From Rikenellaceae bacterium (lineage in GTDB: Bacteria; Bacteroidota; Bacteroidia; Bacteroidales; UBA932), in NCBI GenBank assembly GCA_022777205.1, contig JALFGP010000037.1:2819-66818 (forward strand): a DNA stretch of 64,000 nt, read 5' to 3'. Below are positions 25,471 through 32,526 of this stretch, in pieces (within the stretch, counting starts at the first letter, position 1; the number at the start of each line of letters is the position of its first letter). The position numbers were made by a program, and so were the translations under genes. The notes under the pieces are model-generated. The model was not told where the DNA came from. It saw only the letters and a program-made list of their open reading frames with translations, and did not search any database.

Positions 25471-26364
25471 TTATTTCCAGAGAGGTTCAGTATCCCAGCC
25501 AGTAGGGAATCCCATAGCCCTCAAATCAATCTGAGGAAACTTGCTAAATAAAGTGTGTAATTTGTTCTTGAAATCATTGCTTGGTGAAATGATATCCAAG
25601 AAGAACTTAATCATACAGATGTTAAAGTAAATTCTGTCTTTTGCTACAGGAATAGTCAACCAAGGACGTGACATCTGTTTCGCATCCGCAGGAATAATCA
25701 AGTTAACCTTGTTCCATACACGCGCGTGATGACAACAAGCATTTCGTGTTAGAGCCAATGTCGTCACCCATGATTCCAAGGCTTGAGGCTGCAGGTGGAA
25801 CTGTCTTGCAATCTGCTTTCTGATTCTTTGGTCTGCCAGATTCTTGTATAACTGTACTGTAGTACCAAAAGGAATAATCTCTGAAATCATCCATGCAGGA
25901 GCATAAGGATCAGAATAGGTGTTCTTAAAATGCTTGATGAAATCTTCGGTAGATTTCTTGTACTCAGCATCGATGAACGAAAACGTCTTTACATACGATA
26001 CATGGTTCCTGAAATGCCTTGAATCTGTCATCCAGAAAATATCTCCGCTCATTCTTGCGGTAACATTGGCAACAGCCTCTCGGAAAGCAATCTCGATCTT
26101 CTCAATCTCATTAAAGAGGAGAACCCTGAGCTTTTTATCGAAACGATAGAGATCCAGTACATTGTCGAAAGTCACACCTGGCTTAAAGATGTGATTGGTC
26201 TTTGGCATTGTTAAGAATGGAAGCATGTAAGCACTCAGACGATAATAACCAATGTTCTGAATGTACGCCTCTGCTCTCTGTTCATCATTGATTACCAGCC
26301 CTCGTGATTTGAGAAGTTGCACGAGATCAAAAGGGGAAGAATATCCTTTTGTAAAAGCAGCCAT
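25471..26364 (-). CDS. abiF: Abi family protein (AbiD/AbiF, Abi_2), HEPN RNase toxin
   Basis: L..RGL.I, IGYYRLSAY, LY.FDKKLR.L, IEKIEIAFR, P.WMISE..FG and HEPN R-x4-H (RNACCH) followed by HARVWN. Start trimmed to MAAFTK at 26364. Confidence 0.9.
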   Translation of the reverse strand: MAAFTKGYSSPFDLVQLLKSRGLVINDEQRAEAYIQNIGYYRLSAYMLPFLTMPKTNHIFKPGVTFDNVLDLYRFDKKLRVLLFNEIEKIEIAFREAVANVTARMSGDIFWMTDSRHFRNHVSYVKTFSFIDAEYKKSTEDFIKHFKNTYSDPYAPAWMISEIIPFGTTVQLYKNLADQRIRKQIARQFHLQPQALESWVTTLALTRNACCHHARVWNKVNLIIPADAKQMSRPWLTIPVAKDRIYFNICMIKFFLDIISPSNDFKNKLHTLFSKFPQIDLRAMGFPTGWDTEPLWK

Positions 26365-26373
26365 AAGTGTTAT

Positions 26374-26428
26374 AAAATAAAAAGCCCCACCTATTTGAGC
26401 ATTGTGAAGAGGCTTGGCGGGAACTAAC
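26374..26428 (-). ncRNA. abiF-type structured RNA (putative RNA antitoxin) in the leader of abiF
   Basis: GUUAGUUCCCGCCAAGCCUCUUCACAAUGCUCAAAUAGGUGGGGCUUUUUAUUUU. Outer stem CCGCC/GGUGG, inner AGC/GCU hairpin, U-tract. Starts right after a consensus promoter. Confidence 0.75.
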
Positions 26429-26432
26429 GATG

Positions 26433-26463
26433 CAAAGGTAGCAATTAATTTCTTATTTGCAAA
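26433..26463 (-). promoter_or_regulatory. Dedicated promoter for the abiF RNA and abiF
   Basis: Minus strand TTTG (26460-26463), a 19-nt spacer, then TACCTTTG (26433-26440). Confidence 0.8.
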
Positions 26464-26640
26464 CATTGTGTAAACATCATAGGCAGATATCTAACCATAA
26501 AACATTATATCATAAGAATTGAAGATTGGTATTATGCATAAAACTATTTCACTACATTTTTAATCATTTCTCGTATTGTATTGTTTTCAAGCCTTATTTT
26601 GTTTAAGTAAGACAGTCTTGTTATTTGTTCCTTCGGAAAG

Positions 26641-26667
26641 AAAAAGCCTCCGGGGAAACCGAAGGCT
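26641..26667 (-). terminator. Intrinsic terminator closing the WYL operon
   Basis: Minus strand agccttcgg-tttc-cccggaggct followed by a T-run. Confidence 0.75.
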
Positions 26668-26713
26668 AAATCTTTTTTAGAGTGCATGTGGCCGTAACCG
26701 CATTTCTTGTCAA

Positions 26714-26905
26714 TCATACGGCACTGTTATAACTTAATCCTCTTCTCTTAGCATATCTTTTCAATCTGGATTGATTGATATTGTAAAGTGACTCTCCAAT
26801 CTCCCACATACGTTGAGCTTCGCTTCCCTGAAGGTAAGCAAAGTCCTCATCCTTCTGTTTAATGCAGTTCAATACTGCCGCAGACTTCCAATCATTGCAC
26901 TGCTC
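26714..26905 (-). pseudogene. Start-less 63-codon remnant resembling the C-terminus of DUF6577/AbiEi-like antitoxins
   Basis: Hand-translated frame EQCNDWKSAAVLNCIKQKDEDFAYLQGSEAQRMWEIGESLYNINQSRLKRYAKRRGLSYNSAV*, preceded by an in-frame TGA. The YLQGSE..Y.IN.SRL.RYA.RR pattern is recalled from that family. Confidence 0.4.
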
Positions 26906-26928
26906 TCAGACTAGATCGATGTGTTCAT

Positions 26929-27492
26929 TCAGACCAATGATTTAATGCTAATATTTATGCATTTTGTGTCTCCAAACTGAATAGTTTCTCCTACAGTGGA
27001 ATGGATATGGCCGAAAAGATGGTACTTAGGCTTAGCCTTCATAATGAAGTTTAGTATGTTGGTCGAACCCATATTTTCATCAAGAATCCCCAAAGGTGGA
27101 TTATGGGTCACAACGATGTCTATATCATCAGGTATATCCTCATCTGATACTGAAGAGTTGTCAGAAATAGAGGCTATAATCATACCATCACAATCCTCGA
27201 TAGCGTCCTCAAGAACCGTAATACCTTTCGCTGTCATTCTACGGATAATTATATGTGCCTGACCTAACTCAAAGGATAACTCATGATTACCTGGTACGAA
27301 TATTTTCCACTTGCATGGTAGAGCAGAGAACCATTCTATGAAATCGTCATACTCATCTCCCACAAGATTGTCTTCTACTGCATCGCCGGCACAAATCACT
27401 ATATCAACGTTCTCCGGCACCTGCAGTTCTCTATGTCTGCCATGGGTGTCGGAGAATGCGAAGATATGTTTATTGTTTAGATTCAGAATCAC
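26929..27492 (-). CDS. Calcineurin-like metallophosphoesterase (MPPED/Rv0805-like)
   Basis: SDTHG, AGD, GNHE, THNPP and GHIH metal motifs. GTG start at 27492 chosen to avoid overlapping the upstream gene; the start is uncertain. Confidence 0.85.
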   Translation of the reverse strand: MILNLNNKHIFAFSDTHGRHRELQVPENVDIVICAGDAVEDNLVGDEYDDFIEWFSALPCKWKIFVPGNHELSFELGQAHIIIRRMTAKGITVLEDAIEDCDGMIIASISDNSSVSDEDIPDDIDIVVTHNPPLGILDENMGSTNILNFIMKAKPKYHLFGHIHSTVGETIQFGDTKCINISIKSLV

Positions 27493-27505
27493 AATTATAC
27501 TTAAG

Positions 27506-28147
27506 TTATAATAGGGACTTCCATCTGTCAGAACCCTCTGAATATGTCTCCCCGTTAATAATATGACAAACATATTTTACCTTGTTTCTCATACAAATCC
27601 TATTGGATGCTATTTGCATCAATGTTCTGTTGTTCGCATTGTCGCCTAACAGATGAACAAAATATGCATCATAATTAGATCCGTCTTTATTCAGTTTAAG
27701 AAAGTCTTTTGCAAACTCCTTTACGGGAGACATACCAGCCTTAAATTCAATACAGCAAATCCGTTCACCTTTGTCATTATAAACGACCAAGTCAAATTTT
27801 CCAGAGACACCTTTGTTCTTCTCGGCTATTTGGGGTTCAATTTCTTGTGAAAAAACATATCTCTTATCTGTTGGAGTCTCAACAGAATAATAGTATGGCC
27901 AGTTCTCCTTCTCACATATTTTATTGAACTGCTCAACAAATGCAAATCTAAGTTCTTGTTCACTTACCCTAGTCTTAGCCTTGCGCTCCATATCATCTTT
28001 ATGCTTAAGGCTGTATCGCGGGAACACAAGACGTGATTCCTTGCATGGATGGAAGCTAATATCTTCTCGATTATTTGAAAAAATAACATCAATGACTTTG
28101 AAAGTCTCATCTAGAATAGATTCGATGTGCTCATTAAATTCACTCAT
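27506..28147 (-). CDS. Uncharacterised protein with a PD-(D/E)xK nuclease-like motif
   Basis: SEQELR ... GKFDLVVY ... CCIEFK ... KDFLKL fits an E..D..ExK catalytic arrangement. Confidence 0.55.
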   Translation of the reverse strand: MSEFNEHIESILDETFKVIDVIFSNNREDISFHPCKESRLVFPRYSLKHKDDMERKAKTRVSEQELRFAFVEQFNKICEKENWPYYYSVETPTDKRYVFSQEIEPQIAEKNKGVSGKFDLVVYNDKGERICCIEFKAGMSPVKEFAKDFLKLNKDGSNYDAYFVHLLGDNANNRTLMQIASNRICMRNKVKYVCHIINGETYSEGSDRWKSLL

Positions 28148-28150
28148 AAT

Positions 28151-29056
28151 TCATTGTTTTTTATATGACACCTGGTCATGTAGTTCAAATTCGAAATTGT
28201 ATTGAGGTTTTGGAAGACCTAAATGCTCAGATTGGTAGTTCATAGCCGCATCAAATAGCCACTTGAAGTCTCCAAAGGAACTAATTTCTGCCAATGTTTC
28301 ATTATACTCTTCCAAAATCTTTGACTGAAACGCATGAATGTTTTGATTTGAAAAATCTGTATCAAAGTTAGGATTAAAAATCAGATAAATAAATCTGACA
28401 TTGGAGTTCGCATGGCTCTCAAGGATGTTGGCACAGATTCCCAAGAAATGACAAATCAATTGTTTTACATCGAAATGAGAAATGTACTTCCCGTTCATAC
28501 TAAATGAACAAGCCATGTAGTCAGGCTCATTCTCAATTGGAGTTTCTTCATACGAGAATCCGGAGTTTACGGATTTTATGTGTTCGTATACATCCTTGTA
28601 CACACGTGAAATCTTCTGATTCAGATGTGTTGAGTATATTTCTCTACACTTTGCTTCAACAAAAACATCTTCCGTTGGACTAGAAAGATAACCATCAAGA
28701 TTCGCTGTGTGGCCGACTCTGGTTGGTAATTGTTTCTCAAAACAGAAACCAGGGACTGATTTGGAGCACTCATATATTAGTCTGCTGGATGAGCCAAAAG
28801 ATGCCATCTTAGGCGGATTCAGGCCCCATCTACCTTGCTTTTCAATGAGTTCTCCTCCATCAGCATCGTTATATTGCGCAAAATGGAGTGGTGACATTGA
28901 ATCAATAAATCGTTTCCAATCATCATTGCTAAGATAATTGTTGTACGGAGATTTGCCGCTGATCTCATAGCCATATCCAACTTTCTTTTGTCCGTCCCTA
29001 ATTGCAAAGTCAAGTGCAGTGGCTTTATCAATGGATGGTTTATATTGTTTTTCCAT
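28151..29056 (-). CDS. Putative restriction endonuclease-fold protein (PGN_0703/REase-ARP-like)
   Basis: ASFGSSS, FEKQLPT, ANLDG, VFVEAKCRE and KQLICH motifs (D..EAK). Confidence 0.6.
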   Translation of the reverse strand: MEKQYKPSIDKATALDFAIRDGQKKVGYGYEISGKSPYNNYLSNDDWKRFIDSMSPLHFAQYNDADGGELIEKQGRWGLNPPKMASFGSSSRLIYECSKSVPGFCFEKQLPTRVGHTANLDGYLSSPTEDVFVEAKCREIYSTHLNQKISRVYKDVYEHIKSVNSGFSYEETPIENEPDYMACSFSMNGKYISHFDVKQLICHFLGICANILESHANSNVRFIYLIFNPNFDTDFSNQNIHAFQSKILEEYNETLAEISSFGDFKWLFDAAMNYQSEHLGLPKPQYNFEFELHDQVSYKKQ

Positions 29057-29059
29057 AGT

Positions 29060-29971
29060 CTATCGGTTAGTGTTATATGTTTCTGACAGGTGATCAACAA
29101 TCTCTCTGAGGGTATTTCTAAGAGATGCCGGTTCCAAAACCTCGACTTCTTTTCCATATGACAACACATCCTGTTTAAAATCGTAGTCAGTGGTAAGGAA
29201 ATATGAGAAGATACTATAATCTTCATGAGTCTCGACCTCCTCTTGGCTTCTGTGCAAAGGGAGTGAACGGAAGTACTTTGTCTGCATTGGGGATACTTTG
29301 AGGAGAACCTTCTCTGGTTTCATATCTGAATATACGCGGACTCCGTAGATATTCCCAAAATATCCATCAGCAGAGAACTCCTTAGGCAAGGTAAAGTCCT
29401 CCGAAGTTATTGTCGCAGTTATCATCCTGTCAAGGGCAAGCATTCTGCATCCGTCTGGATCTCCTTTGTATCCATATAGATACCATCTGCGCTTAAATTC
29501 TTTCAGGAAGTATGGCTCAAATACAAAGTGGTCTTCGTCAGGCTTCCGGTAACTTTGGTAGCGTATTTCCACCTTCTTACCATCGCGAATCGCCTGAATA
29601 ATGATAGACAGAAACTTATCCTTGGAAGGAACTTCATCAAAGAAGATGCGGTCATGTAGACTGGCACCCTCTGCAAGCAGGGAATTAAGGCTCAGTGCAT
29701 TGAGCATCCAGTTACGGATACCACGCCCGTTCATATCCTCTGCGTTTTCAATATAATATGTATTGTCCCTGCGGTCGCATACTATGTCGATTCCGAAGAT
29801 GTCAGCTATCGATGCTATGTGATTAGCAAACGTGCGTGTAGCGAGTTCCTTGCCGTCTTCATTGACGCTGCAATTTATCCATAACTTCTTGATTTCCTTC
29901 AAGGTTAAAGGCCCTCTGCTCTGGAGTGATTCCAGTAGCCAGACGTAAGATTTAAAATAGTTCTTTGCCAT
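29060..29971 (-). CDS. wHTH-WYL domain transcriptional regulator
   Basis: N-terminal HTH (LTLKEI..W..RTF.NHI..I..IFGIDI.C) and WYL/WCX region (FEPYFLKEFKRRWYLYG, LALDRM, YFRSLPLH.SQ, G..VEVLEP..LR). Confidence 0.92.
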   Translation of the reverse strand: MAKNYFKSYVWLLESLQSRGPLTLKEIKKLWINCSVNEDGKELATRTFANHIASIADIFGIDIVCDRRDNTYYIENAEDMNGRGIRNWMLNALSLNSLLAEGASLHDRIFFDEVPSKDKFLSIIIQAIRDGKKVEIRYQSYRKPDEDHFVFEPYFLKEFKRRWYLYGYKGDPDGCRMLALDRMITATITSEDFTLPKEFSADGYFGNIYGVRVYSDMKPEKVLLKVSPMQTKYFRSLPLHRSQEEVETHEDYSIFSYFLTTDYDFKQDVLSYGKEVEVLEPASLRNTLREIVDHLSETYNTNR

Positions 29972-30081
29972 AGTGACAACAAAGTTAGCAAATGCTTCTG
30001 CAAAATTGTGGCATATTAAAAATATTTTACCTCTGCCATTTTCTTGCTGAAGCCCCCGTCATCTTTGCCGAAAAGAAAACA

Positions 30082-31245
30082 ATGAAAGAACAAATCAGAC
30101 AGCGGACCGAAACTGCTAGACAAAGATTAATTAAACAAAGGAGGTTATCACGAATGAAAGATTTTAAGAAATTCAGAGAGCATGTCTATGACTTGGCTAA
30201 ACGCAAATTTGGAGAGATTCCTAAAGACGTAGAACACAGGCTTATTGCTGAAACCGATGCTATCAAGGAATATGGAAGAGGTGAGATGCTTCTTACTATG
30301 TGGCGTCTGGTGGATGAGTTAAGGAAGCACGACATTAATATCCGTCTCACTCTGGGCCAAGGTTATAATGTGTCATTGGTCTGCTATCTCCTTGGAATCT
30401 CGTCATTTAACCCGATTGATCATCCGAAGCTCAAGACAGAATCGTATGTAATCAGTACGTTCAAGTTATCATCAGAGATAGTGTTCAAAATTGACAAGGA
30501 TCAGTCAGCAGTCATTGATGGTTTCCTTAACTCTCTACGATATGAAGTCGCAAGAATGGATGTTTCAGGAGACTTTCATTCAAGGAAAATCAAGGCTTGT
30601 TGTGAGGGAAATTCCGATTTTGCACTCGAATTTAAGTATGAACCGAATGTCGGACGTATCAGAATCTTTGGTGAACTGATCGGATGGGATAAATTTGAAA
30701 AGATTCCTACTGATGATCTGGAGACAATGAATCTCATCAATGATATCGACATATATGGTGCAATGACCTCGAGTCTAGCTCCCATCACCATTGAAGCAAT
30801 CAGAGAAATCAATCCGTCGAATGTGGAAAAACTGGCAGATGCCTTGTCCTTCACTTCTGAAAGAAAGTATAGTCATCTGCTGAAGTATCTGGAGAATAGA
30901 GATACAGGAAACAGAGTATTTACCGGACATCCACAGATAGATGAAATTCTCAGTCCCACTCATGGGATCTTACTCGACACAAGTCAGCTTGGACAGATTT
31001 TTAAATTGCCTCTTCGCAGTGAATTAGGGGAGAATGCCTATAAAGTTATAAGGGGAAAGCATAGATCATTAATGGCATCTCCAATAGTGGACAGATGCGA
31101 TATTTATGTAAAAGCATATGATCTCTATCGGTCGGCATATGTCAAGGTGCACTATCCTGAAATCTTCAAGAAAGTTATAGAATCAAATAGCAATCTCTTA
31201 TCGGTATCGATGCATTTCCTGATGGACATAGAGAGGAGTCTATAA
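30082..31245 (+). CDS. Miniature DNA polymerase III alpha (DnaE)-like protein, probably catalytically inactive
   Basis: Ordered DnaE palm/fingers motifs: HRL..E...I, SLVCYLLGIS..NP, IPTDD.ET, I.EINPSN.E.LAD, H..I.EIL.PTHGILL, Y.SAYVKVHYPE.F. The PDxDxD and KxDxLG positions are degenerate. Alternative start MKDFKK at 30154. Confidence 0.65.
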   Translation: MKEQIRQRTETARQRLIKQRRLSRMKDFKKFREHVYDLAKRKFGEIPKDVEHRLIAETDAIKEYGRGEMLLTMWRLVDELRKHDINIRLTLGQGYNVSLVCYLLGISSFNPIDHPKLKTESYVISTFKLSSEIVFKIDKDQSAVIDGFLNSLRYEVARMDVSGDFHSRKIKACCEGNSDFALEFKYEPNVGRIRIFGELIGWDKFEKIPTDDLETMNLINDIDIYGAMTSSLAPITIEAIREINPSNVEKLADALSFTSERKYSHLLKYLENRDTGNRVFTGHPQIDEILSPTHGILLDTSQLGQIFKLPLRSELGENAYKVIRGKHRSLMASPIVDRCDIYVKAYDLYRSAYVKVHYPEIFKKVIESNSNLLSVSMHFLMDIERSL

Positions 31246-32526
31246 CTCAATGCCGAGCATCCATTTCCAGCACGGAATAACCTCGATCTTGCCGTATTCG
31301 TCCTCTATGATTTGCTGCTCATCATAGGTGAGTATAATCCTTCTCTTGCAGGCGAGGGCTTTAGGCAGTTTTTGGAGTGCACCGACTTCTCTTTCCCAAG
31401 TGTCGATATCCCTCGAAATTGAATATGACACTTGGATGGCAAGCTCGTCTTCGGGAACATAGAAGTCGACTTCTACATTGCTGCTATAGAAATACACCCG
31501 CTCGTTGTCCTGATCGTGACCATATATGCGGAACAGTTGCAATGCAACGAGGTTTTCCATCAGAGTTGTTGCAGGATCAACCAAAAGAATGCTAAGTATG
31601 CCGTTATCCACAAAATAATATTTGCAGTTGGTTTCTTTTTCGGAGAACGACGAGGATATGTTATGGAGTCTGAGTAGCAACCAGGCATCTTCACTATAGC
31701 AGATGTAACTGCTGGTGGTAGGGACACTTATTTTTCCGCCTACACTTGAGAGGACCTGCGCAAGGCGAGTGTAGGACACAGGTTGCTTGACTCCTTCTGC
31801 AATCTTCTTTATGAGCAGACGCAGAAGGTTCGGATTGCTGATTTTGTTCCTGGTACAGATGTCGCCAAGGTAGATCTTCTGATATACTGAACTGATGTAG
31901 TTCCTCTTTACTGAAAGACCGAGGCTTTCCGGAAGGCCACCCCATTTGACGTATTCTTCGTATGCTTTTTTGAGATTGACGCGCGCACTGGTGCCCAGAA
32001 GACTTTTTTCGTCATATGGAATACCAGCCCAGCGGAGGTATTCAGCAAAAGAGAACGGATAAATCTCGATAGGGATGTATCGGCCACCGAGGGTTGACAT
32101 CATTTCTTTGGAGAGCATTTTAGCATTCGAACCGGTTATCCATACCATGTACTTGCTGTCTGAAACTCTTCGAGCAAACTTCTCCCATCCGTCGATATTC
32201 TGGATTTCATCAAGGAAGAGAGCTGGCTTTGCTACGCCTCCCATTTCCATGTGACATTCCAGAATGGAGTCCATGTCATTGATGTCCAATGAGCCAAGAC
32301 GTTCATCCTCAAAATTGAGGTAGAGGATTTCGTCCCACGTATGGCCTTCGCTGAGCAACTGCTGAATCTTCTCGTATAGTAAGAAAGACTTGCCAGCCCT
32401 TCTTACACCAACAAAAATATAGCAGTTGAAGCCGTCAGTCTGGATGTCTCTGTGGATGATTTTGTACTGTTCGATTTCTTCTCTGCTGTTCTGAAGTATC
32501 TGTTTGAGAATAAACTTATCTACCAT
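31240..32526 (-). CDS. AAA+ ATPase (AAA_14 plus DUF4143 family)
   Basis: GVRRAGKS, YLNFEDERL, LFLDEIQ, TGSNAKML, GGLPE, K.YFVDNG and EVDF..IQV motifs. Confidence 0.9.
   Translation of the reverse strand: MVDKFILKQILQNSREEIEQYKIIHRDIQTDGFNCYIFVGVRRAGKSFLLYEKIQQLLSEGHTWDEILYLNFEDERLGSLDINDMDSILECHMEMGGVAKPALFLDEIQNIDGWEKFARRVSDSKYMVWITGSNAKMLSKEMMSTLGGRYIPIEIYPFSFAEYLRWAGIPYDEKSLLGTSARVNLKKAYEEYVKWGGLPESLGLSVKRNYISSVYQKIYLGDICTRNKISNPNLLRLLIKKIAEGVKQPVSYTRLAQVLSSVGGKISVPTTSSYICYSEDAWLLLRLHNISSSFSEKETNCKYYFVDNGILSILLVDPATTLMENLVALQLFRIYGHDQDNERVYFYSSNVEVDFYVPEDELAIQVSYSISRDIDTWEREVGALQKLPKALACKRRIILTYDEQQIIEDEYGKIEVIPCWKWMLGIEL

Follow-up and report, generated by a model that had tools for sequence, protein, structure and literature searches.

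A WYL-headed operon in a Rikenellaceae genome as a predicted bidirectional array of interchangeable defense genes

We analyzed a 64,000-nucleotide stretch of DNA from a Rikenellaceae bacterium (contig JALFGP010000037.1, positions 2,819 to 66,818), here called the window, and within it a four-gene operon encoding a WYL-domain transcription regulator, two proteins of unannotated families that we named G2 and G3, and a metallophosphoesterase. An initial annotation, made from the sequence alone, had proposed these four genes as an undescribed anti-phage system. We favor, with slightly better than even confidence, the reading of this locus as a bidirectional array of interchangeable defense effectors under WYL control, and not a dedicated four-protein machine. 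The genes behind the putative WYL operator, on both of its sides, are exchanged between relatives, and single cassettes are probably able to work in other combinations.

Exchange of genes among related loci

The comparison covered 80 loci from genomes with G2 as the anchor, another 80 from metagenomes with G3 as the anchor, and contigs with close homologues; the neighboring open reading frames of all fetched loci were clustered, and PADLOC-DB 2.0.0 profiles were used for defense-gene annotation. In the closest relatives (loci L161 to L166), the WYL protein, G2, and the phosphoesterase are 95, 87, and 75% identical to those of the window, and the third gene encodes a nuclease-like 252-amino-acid protein of the c29 family, which carries its own D..EAK motif and is unrelated to G3. 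At the DNA level, identity between these loci and the window is 90% over positions 30028 to 28164, nil across G3, and 77% across the phosphoesterase gene. An independent 1.4-kb contig (L081) harbors exactly the G2-G3-phosphoesterase junctions of the window at 95 to 100% identity. Its identity drops to 61% inside the phosphoesterase gene, indicating a second recombination breakpoint.

Further arrangements were found: WYL-G3, WYL-G2-G3, WYL-G3-c29-phosphoesterase, and G2-phosphoesterase. After dereplication, 12 of 51 informative groups had a WYL-G2 pair, a common arrangement in Bacteroidales. Pairs of G3 and phosphoesterase genes were frequent, mostly with a 4-nucleotide (nt) overlap, and were present in 6 of 29 groups after dereplication at 80% identity. 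Among 401 Bacteroidales species genomes, 21 encoded the phosphoesterase, 8 encoded G3, and 1 encoded G2, and the three came together only in the window's own genome. Co-occurrence in other genomes, as the idea of a system implies, is indeed seen as pairs and partial combinations in the G2- and G3-anchored loci, in L081, and in L161 to L166. Judged by these comparisons, the genes co-occur, but as a shuffled set.

Several other combinations came up in the same survey. A human-gut block without a WYL gene, which accounts for most of the G3-phosphoesterase pairs, consists of genes with 4-nt overlaps for a mini-DnaE (166 amino acids), c6 (133), an MBL/beta-CASP protein (425), G3, the phosphoesterase, and c7 (114). 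This six-gene block was present in many metagenome contigs among L085 to L154 (e.g., L102:7001-8139 and upstream) and could represent a candidate system of its own. Within Clostridia, the G2 gene comes last in a conserved trio, following c11 (about 232 amino acids, weakly NERD-like) and c9 (about 215 amino acids, a probable membrane protein), as in L029, L032, L037, L042, L074, and others. In four Clostridial loci, G2 follows a KAP NTPase resembling QatA, PifA, and PDC-S20. Stand-alone sigma-70 region 2 proteins are encoded directly after WYL-G2 pairs (L007:1723-2124; cluster c8) and match the PADLOC MzaA profile (5.9e-21), indicating that the Mza defense protein has the same domain. Overall, the neighboring families include ones that resemble QatA/PifA, IetA, and MzaA.

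The regulator, its operator, and the divergent DnaE-like gene

The WYL protein matches the Pfam models WYL (4.6e-15, residues 121 to 187) and WCX (6.1e-10, residues 219 to 293), as well as the PADLOC WYL profile (2.3e-30). Residues 1 to 110 did not match any Pfam helix-turn-helix (HTH) model, and this region is conserved among homologues. The PDB sequences nearest to the WYL protein are PafBC (5.7e-9), DriD, and CapW (0.066). We predict a homodimer-type regulator with a winged HTH, a WYL, and a WCX domain, encoded by the first gene of a predicted operon. The same genome has three more WYL paralogues, 33 to 41% identical (C17:3905-6250, C67:11199-14279, and C112:67752-68693). The gene for one of them is followed by a DEDDh-type exonuclease gene, adjoining a low-G+C DUF262-like gene.

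The putative operator, a nested palindrome, is located between the ATG of the WYL gene (29971) and the ATG of the divergent DnaE-like gene (30082). By the Bacteroidota promoter consensus (a -7 box and a -33 element), TAACTTTG, just ahead of the WYL gene, reads as a -7 box. Sequences upstream of nine WYL genes from the same clade were aligned; the proteins of these genes are 58 to 95% identical, and their cargo differs. The half-sites CTTCrGCAA-N5-GGCAGA and TCTGCCAy-N4-TTGCnGAAG were invariant in all nine loci. In each, the palindrome is followed after about 10 nt by a TAnCTTTG box, equally invariant, and then 8 to 9 nt farther on by the ATG. The inner half-site spacing is about 11 bases, or one helical turn, longer in three loci of this alignment; in the upstream regions of L161, L165, and L156, the inner spacer differs by about 11 nt and the half-sites are unchanged. 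To the left of the palindrome, related loci have a mirror-image TAnnTTTG-like box ahead of whichever gene is divergent, be it one for a DnaE-like protein, a second phosphoesterase, a ClpP-like protein, or an IetA-like ATPase.

In the 2.39-Mb genome, the full palindrome motif was found a single time. Other Bacteroidales have G2 headed by a second WYL clade, with about 35% identity to the first, and there the corresponding site is taken by another palindrome, ATGCAATGnTTTTGCAT. Regulator and operator co-vary between the two clades. This is good comparative evidence for the prediction that the WYL protein controls both divergent units. We favor repression over activation, because a TTTG lies within each operator half-site and would serve as the -33 element.

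The divergent DnaE-like protein (388/417 amino acids) matches Pfam DNA_pol3_alpha (1.8e-8) and a finger domain (2.6e-5). In L161, the same WYL gene has a 36%-identical DnaE-like homologue on its divergent side, and other DnaE fragments recur near these cassettes. Its divergent orientation and the operator region that it shares with the WYL gene make the DnaE-like gene a probable member of the WYL regulon. In L161 (2715-6943), the divergent side of the WYL gene encodes a second phosphoesterase, the DnaE-like protein, proteins of 106 and 315 amino acids, and an MBL-fold hydrolase.

Nuclease-like proteins and the phosphoesterase

Neither G2 nor G3 had a match in Pfam, NCBIfam, PHROGs, PADLOC, or PDB sequences, and profile searches of the PDB with both families found nothing. 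They were absent from 50,697 phage records as well; in IMG/VR, no relative of G2 and only two remote relatives of G3 were detected. One G3 relative sits in a stretch resembling a prophage or an integrative and conjugative element (ICE). That G2 and G3 might be paralogues was rejected on an hhalign probability of 1.4%.

The search with G2 gave 822 homologues, and the family has more than 800 cluster representatives in Bacteroidales and Clostridia. Among 24 homologues with 51 to 87% identity, D121, E134, and K136 of the NLDG..EAK motif and a PPKMASxGSSSR loop are invariant. In the AlphaFold model of G2 (predicted local distance difference test [pLDDT] score of 93), D121 lies on strand 117-125 and E134 and K136 on strand 130-136, and the strand order around these residues is that of the PD-(D/E)xK core. 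Match lists of G2 below threshold were rich in PD-(D/E)xK proteins. An hhalign comparison with c29 gave 55% probability over the ExK region, and 1 of the 24 family members had a weak PDDEXK_4 match (E value of 0.064). For G2, a restriction-endonuclease-like fold is probable, with support at the level of motifs.

For G3, residues E63, E65, E90, D119, E134, and K136 are invariant in 40 homologues with 32 to 73% identity; the last three belong to the FDL..EFK motif. The AlphaFold model (pLDDT of 92) has an alpha-beta-beta-beta-alpha-beta core, with D119, E134, and K136 on strands 2 and 3, as expected of a PD-(D/E)xK core. The best Foldseek match was BbvCI (E value of 1.2e-3, probability of 0.97, at a low TM-score of 0.28), and DrdV and Card1 were also found. 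Single G3 family members had weak, subthreshold matches to SduA_C, HSDR_N, and VRR_NUC. We accept G3, on its modeled structure, as a protein of the restriction-endonuclease fold. The initial annotation had read two nuclease folds in this operon: that of G3 is supported by model and Foldseek, that of G2 was not confirmed by a Foldseek hit, and the motifs of both are invariant.

The phosphoesterase matches Pfam Metallophos (7.2e-13) and, over profile positions 10 to 200 of 223, the PADLOC family PDC-S10 (PDLC04908; 3.9e-41). Its sole sequence match in the PDB was the mammalian nucleotide phosphodiesterase MPPED2 (3rl4; 1.2e-17). The metal motifs DxH, GD, GNH, H, and GHxH are complete, as had been noted from the sequence; indeed, all 38 family members compared have D15, H17, D37, N69, H70, H130, H162, and H164 unchanged. 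Two more paralogues are encoded on contig C97 of the same genome (C97:1506-2120).

As an unbiased sample, we fetched the surroundings of the gene in 20 other genomes found by the phosphoesterase alone. The same-strand gene directly upstream encoded a nuclease in 8 of these 20 loci, with four folds represented. Genes in this position encoded an MBL/beta-CASP hydrolase (three loci), c29, G2, a REase-ARP/PDDEXK_13 protein, a DEDDh exonuclease, a PLD-type nuclease, and a DUF6946 protein (one locus each). A WYL gene was present within five genes in 6 of the 20 loci, and in some of the genomes the phosphoesterase gene stands alone amid housekeeping genes. In L187 (9001-10748), the place of the metallophosphoesterase after a distant G3 relative is taken by a nonhomologous phosphoesterase with a PHP domain.

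The phosphoesterase hence seems to partner nucleases irrespective of their fold, which would indicate that it acts on nuclease products, nucleic acid ends, or nucleotide pools. The suggestion of the initial annotation that it acts on nucleotides or nucleic acid ends gains indirect support from this repeated place after nucleases of unrelated folds, together with its kinship to MPPED2. Calcineurin-like phosphoesterases are anti-phage effectors that degrade nucleotides and NAD (10.1101/2025.11.05.686725; 10.64898/2026.01.15.699771). The pairing seen here fits those findings, although partner and sensor differ.

These elements could work together as follows. By analogy with BrxR and CapW, the WYL protein would keep both promoters repressed until a ligand, most likely single-stranded DNA, arises from infection or DNA damage and occupies the WYL domain. 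Transcription would then yield a nearly leaderless mRNA for WYL, G2, G3, and the phosphoesterase, ending at the terminator (26667-26645). Folds and motifs suggest that G3, and probably G2, would be Mg-dependent PD-(D/E)xK nucleases whose target is nucleic acid of the invader or of the cell. The gene for the MPPED2-like phosphoesterase invariably comes last and is mostly coupled to a preceding nuclease gene; the enzyme would act on the nuclease products or on nucleotide pools, with oligo- or mononucleotides, cyclic or terminal phosphates, and dinucleotides as possible substrates. The damage would thereby become irreversible, or the phage would be deprived of nucleotides.

A bolder extension, which we put forward tentatively and consider doubtful as a whole, is that the operon exemplifies a kind of locus that is widespread among anaerobes of gut and rumen but as yet undescribed. 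In such loci, two divergent strings of interchangeable genes would be gated by a WYL protein specific to its clade, together with the operator of that protein. These would combine nuclease-phosphoesterase pairs with stand-alone, probably inactive pieces of host machinery (mini-DnaE and sigma-70 region 2), the latter serving as decoys or guards that sense phage factors directed against the replisome or RNA polymerase.

Operon setting, alternative explanations, and known systems

The four genes lie on the minus strand with stop-to-start spacings of 3, 3, and 13 nt, in agreement with the tight coupling first described. The 13-nt gap is conditional on the GTG start of the phosphoesterase gene, as the first in-frame ATG (27573) would create a 68-nt overlap with G3. 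The GTG is favored because the PDC-S10 profile alignment begins only at residue 35 of the longer open reading frame. The terminator placed at 26641 to 26667 by the initial annotation was recovered as a hairpin with a T run (Table 1). About 260 nt (26668-26928) separate it from the phosphoesterase stop. This 3' untranslated stretch contains a 63-codon open frame (26714-26905) whose sole in-frame start is TTG and which had no relative among any of the fetched loci.

Table 1. Features of the operon and its control region in the window
Feature	Position	Strand	Remarks
Intrinsic terminator of the operon	26645..26667	-	9-bp stem (6 G-C pairs), then T run
Metallophosphoesterase	26929..27492	-	187 amino acids from GTG; PADLOC candidate family PDC-S10; MPPED2-like
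G3	27506..28147	-	213 amino acids; unannotated, PD-(D/E)xK-type nuclease-like; swappable position-3 cassette
G2	28151..29056	-	301 amino acids; unannotated family, invariant D..ExK motif
WYL-WCX transcription regulator (first operon gene)	29060..29971	-	303 amino acids; Pfam and PADLOC WYL matches
TAACTTTG, Bacteroidota-type -7 box	29980..29987	-	8 nt ahead of WYL ATG
Nested palindrome (58 bp), putative WYL operator	29995..30052		overlaps -33 regions of both divergent promoters
CATCTTTG, -7-like box of divergent promoter	30060..30067	+	14 nt ahead of DnaE-like ATG
Miniature DnaE-like gene, divergent from WYL gene	30082..31245	+	Pfam DNA_pol3_alpha, finger domain

The AT-rich composition noted before was confirmed, with 38 to 43% G+C over 26 to 30 kb of the window versus 50 to 55% in the flanks and 48.9% in the whole 2.39-Mb genome. 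Between the window and locus L161, the ratio of nonsynonymous to synonymous substitution rates (dN/dS) was 0.09 for the WYL gene, 0.16 for G2, and 0.12 for the phosphoesterase gene; these genes are under purifying selection. Beyond the terminator lies an AbiD/Abi_2 gene (25471-26466; PADLOC AbiD, 9.2e-69). On the other side, an AAA_14/DUF4143 ATPase gene (31240-32526; PDC-S01, 5e-94) converges on the DnaE-like gene, with 6 nt shared between the two. These two neighbors bear out the defense-locus context that had been expected of a WYL-headed operon. A search for marks of mobility at the locus found no integrase, tRNA, or flanking direct repeats. A 14-nt repeat (26453 and 32551) was rejected as an island-flanking repeat, being merely two promoter-like boxes. 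Genomes of the same genus have only about 65 to 69% DNA identity to this one, and their synteny stops directly past the FAD-protein gene; an empty-site comparison for the island borders was rejected because of this divergence.

Several points weigh against the reading as an array of defense effectors. The G2- and G3-anchored locus sets are biased towards their own neighbors, most of the G3-phosphoesterase pairs come from one human-gut lineage, and among the 401 species genomes G3 and the phosphoesterase show no co-occurrence above chance (overlap in 1, with about 0.4 expected). PDC-S10 is only a computational candidate in PADLOC, and G2 had no Foldseek hit at an E value of ≤0.001 in PDB or BFVD and no significant profile match. 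The WYL protein has a closer sequence relative in the activator PafBC than in CapW, so that control could also be by activation, and PafBC, too, acts at a box in the -33 region.

This kinship lends itself to another explanation, which we regard as unlikely: a WYL-activated DNA damage or repair regulon, as with PafBC of mycobacteria or DriD of Caulobacter, in which WYL protein bound to single-stranded DNA turns on nucleases, an end-cleaning phosphoesterase, and a DnaE-derived protein. Among solved structures, PafBC is the closest to the WYL protein in sequence, such WYL regulators are sensors of single-stranded DNA (PMC11662680), and nucleases, phosphoesterase, beta-CASP hydrolase, and DnaE pieces would all suit DNA-end processing. 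However, the patchy, island-like spread of the genes (21, 8, and 1 of the 401 species genomes for the phosphoesterase, G3, and G2, respectively), their low G+C content, their defense-gene neighbors, and the rapid swapping of cassettes are difficult to reconcile with a repair regulon. In addition, the phosphoesterase is small and MPPED2-like and lacks the capping domain that Mre11 and SbcD carry. The low-G+C island and the mosaic recombination in L161 to L166 and L081 would also suit cargo that serves a mobile or formerly mobile island, be it through exclusion of competitors, addiction by repressor-held toxin-like nucleases, or host takeover. Stand-alone fragments of host machinery (DnaE and sigma region 2) recur beside the cassettes, and one G3 relative was found in the prophage- or ICE-like stretch. 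Yet the locus shows none of the mobility marks sought, and G2 and G3 are missing from the phage records, with only the two remote G3 relatives in IMG/VR, so that we hold this to be distinctly unlikely.

Read literally, the initial annotation describes G2, G3, and the phosphoesterase as one obligate three-effector system. The short gaps, the same junctions in the independent contig L081, and the WYL-G2-X-phosphoesterase skeleton retained in L161 to L166 speak for it. But the X of that skeleton bears no relation to G3, any two of the three genes can be found paired in the absence of the other, and the full trio was present in only 1 of 401 genomes; a fixed four-gene system is not what we found, and the obligate form of the idea appears quite improbable. 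At the opposite extreme, the genes could be unrelated single-gene candidates, chance neighbors in a crowded island. PADLOC indeed lists PDC-S10 as a single-gene candidate, and the solitary phosphoesterase genes amid housekeeping genes agree with this. Genes that are closely spaced or overlapping, bracketed by a single conserved operator and a single terminator, and a phosphoesterase that repeatedly adjoins nucleases make mere coincidence very hard to credit.

The proposed WYL-gated array of interchangeable effectors combines known and new elements. Mosaic defense loci headed by WYL regulators have been described before, and PDC-S10 already has a catalogue entry. The new elements are two protein families (G2 and G3), a WYL clade of Bacteroidales whose operator is predicted to be bidirectional, the nuclease-phosphoesterase coupling, and the exchange of cassettes. 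In our literature search, no paper was found that joins WYL, phosphoesterase, G2/G3-type nucleases, or DnaE fragments. The claim of an undescribed system stands insofar as PADLOC 2.0 names no such multigene system, but the phosphoesterase itself belongs to the candidate family PDC-S10. G2 and G3 are sizeable unannotated families whose contexts point to effectors of conflict systems. The regulator-operator pair can be tested in Bacteroidales, where BrxR-type control is undescribed. The company of nucleases of at least four unrelated folds suggests a hypothesis for PDC-S10, namely a two-step effector in which a nuclease acts first and the phosphoesterase follows. If the DnaE-like gene is in the regulon, this bears on the use by bacteria of copies of their own replication proteins in immunity.

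Compared with known systems, the operon shares single features with several. As in Metis (MisA/MisB) and PUA-Cal-HAD, it encodes a calcineurin-like phosphoesterase, which in those systems is a nucleotide- or NAD+-degrading effector (10.1101/2025.11.05.686725; 10.64898/2026.01.15.699771). However, the partner here is a nuclease, and Pfam detected neither the PUA sensor domain nor the HAD partner that accompany Calcineurin-CE, MisA, and PUA-Cal. G3 has the same catalytic core as Shedu SduA, a stand-alone PD-(D/E)xK defense nuclease, and one distant family member matches SduA_C weakly (8.4e-4). It is nevertheless much smaller, lacks the SduA N-terminal domain, and had no PADLOC or Pfam match to the SduA (DUF4263) profile. 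The match of the fourth gene to the PDC-S10 profile is almost full-length, but PADLOC defines PDC-S10 as a single gene, whereas the gene of the window is terminal in an operon and coupled to nucleases. PafBC and DriD resemble the locus in being WYL regulators with nuclease- or polymerase-related cargo, and PafBC is the best solved match. Unlike their genome-wide regulon, the locus is accessory and island-borne with a single operator, and its regulator is a single 303-amino-acid protein instead of a PafB-PafC pair.

Finally, the repressor BrxR recognizes inverted repeats; its homologues adjoin defense systems in 48% of cases and have been reported almost only in Proteobacteria (PMC9122601). CapW is freed from DNA by single-stranded DNA (PMC11662680). 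The regulator of the window is like both in its WYL and WCX domains, its place as the first gene, the inverted-repeat box in its own promoter, and the mosaic defense cargo downstream. It differs in being only remotely similar by sequence (CapW, E value of 0.066), in belonging to a clade from gut and rumen Bacteroidales, in its unannotated cargo families, and in its predicted operator, a 58-bp nested palindrome for two divergent promoters.

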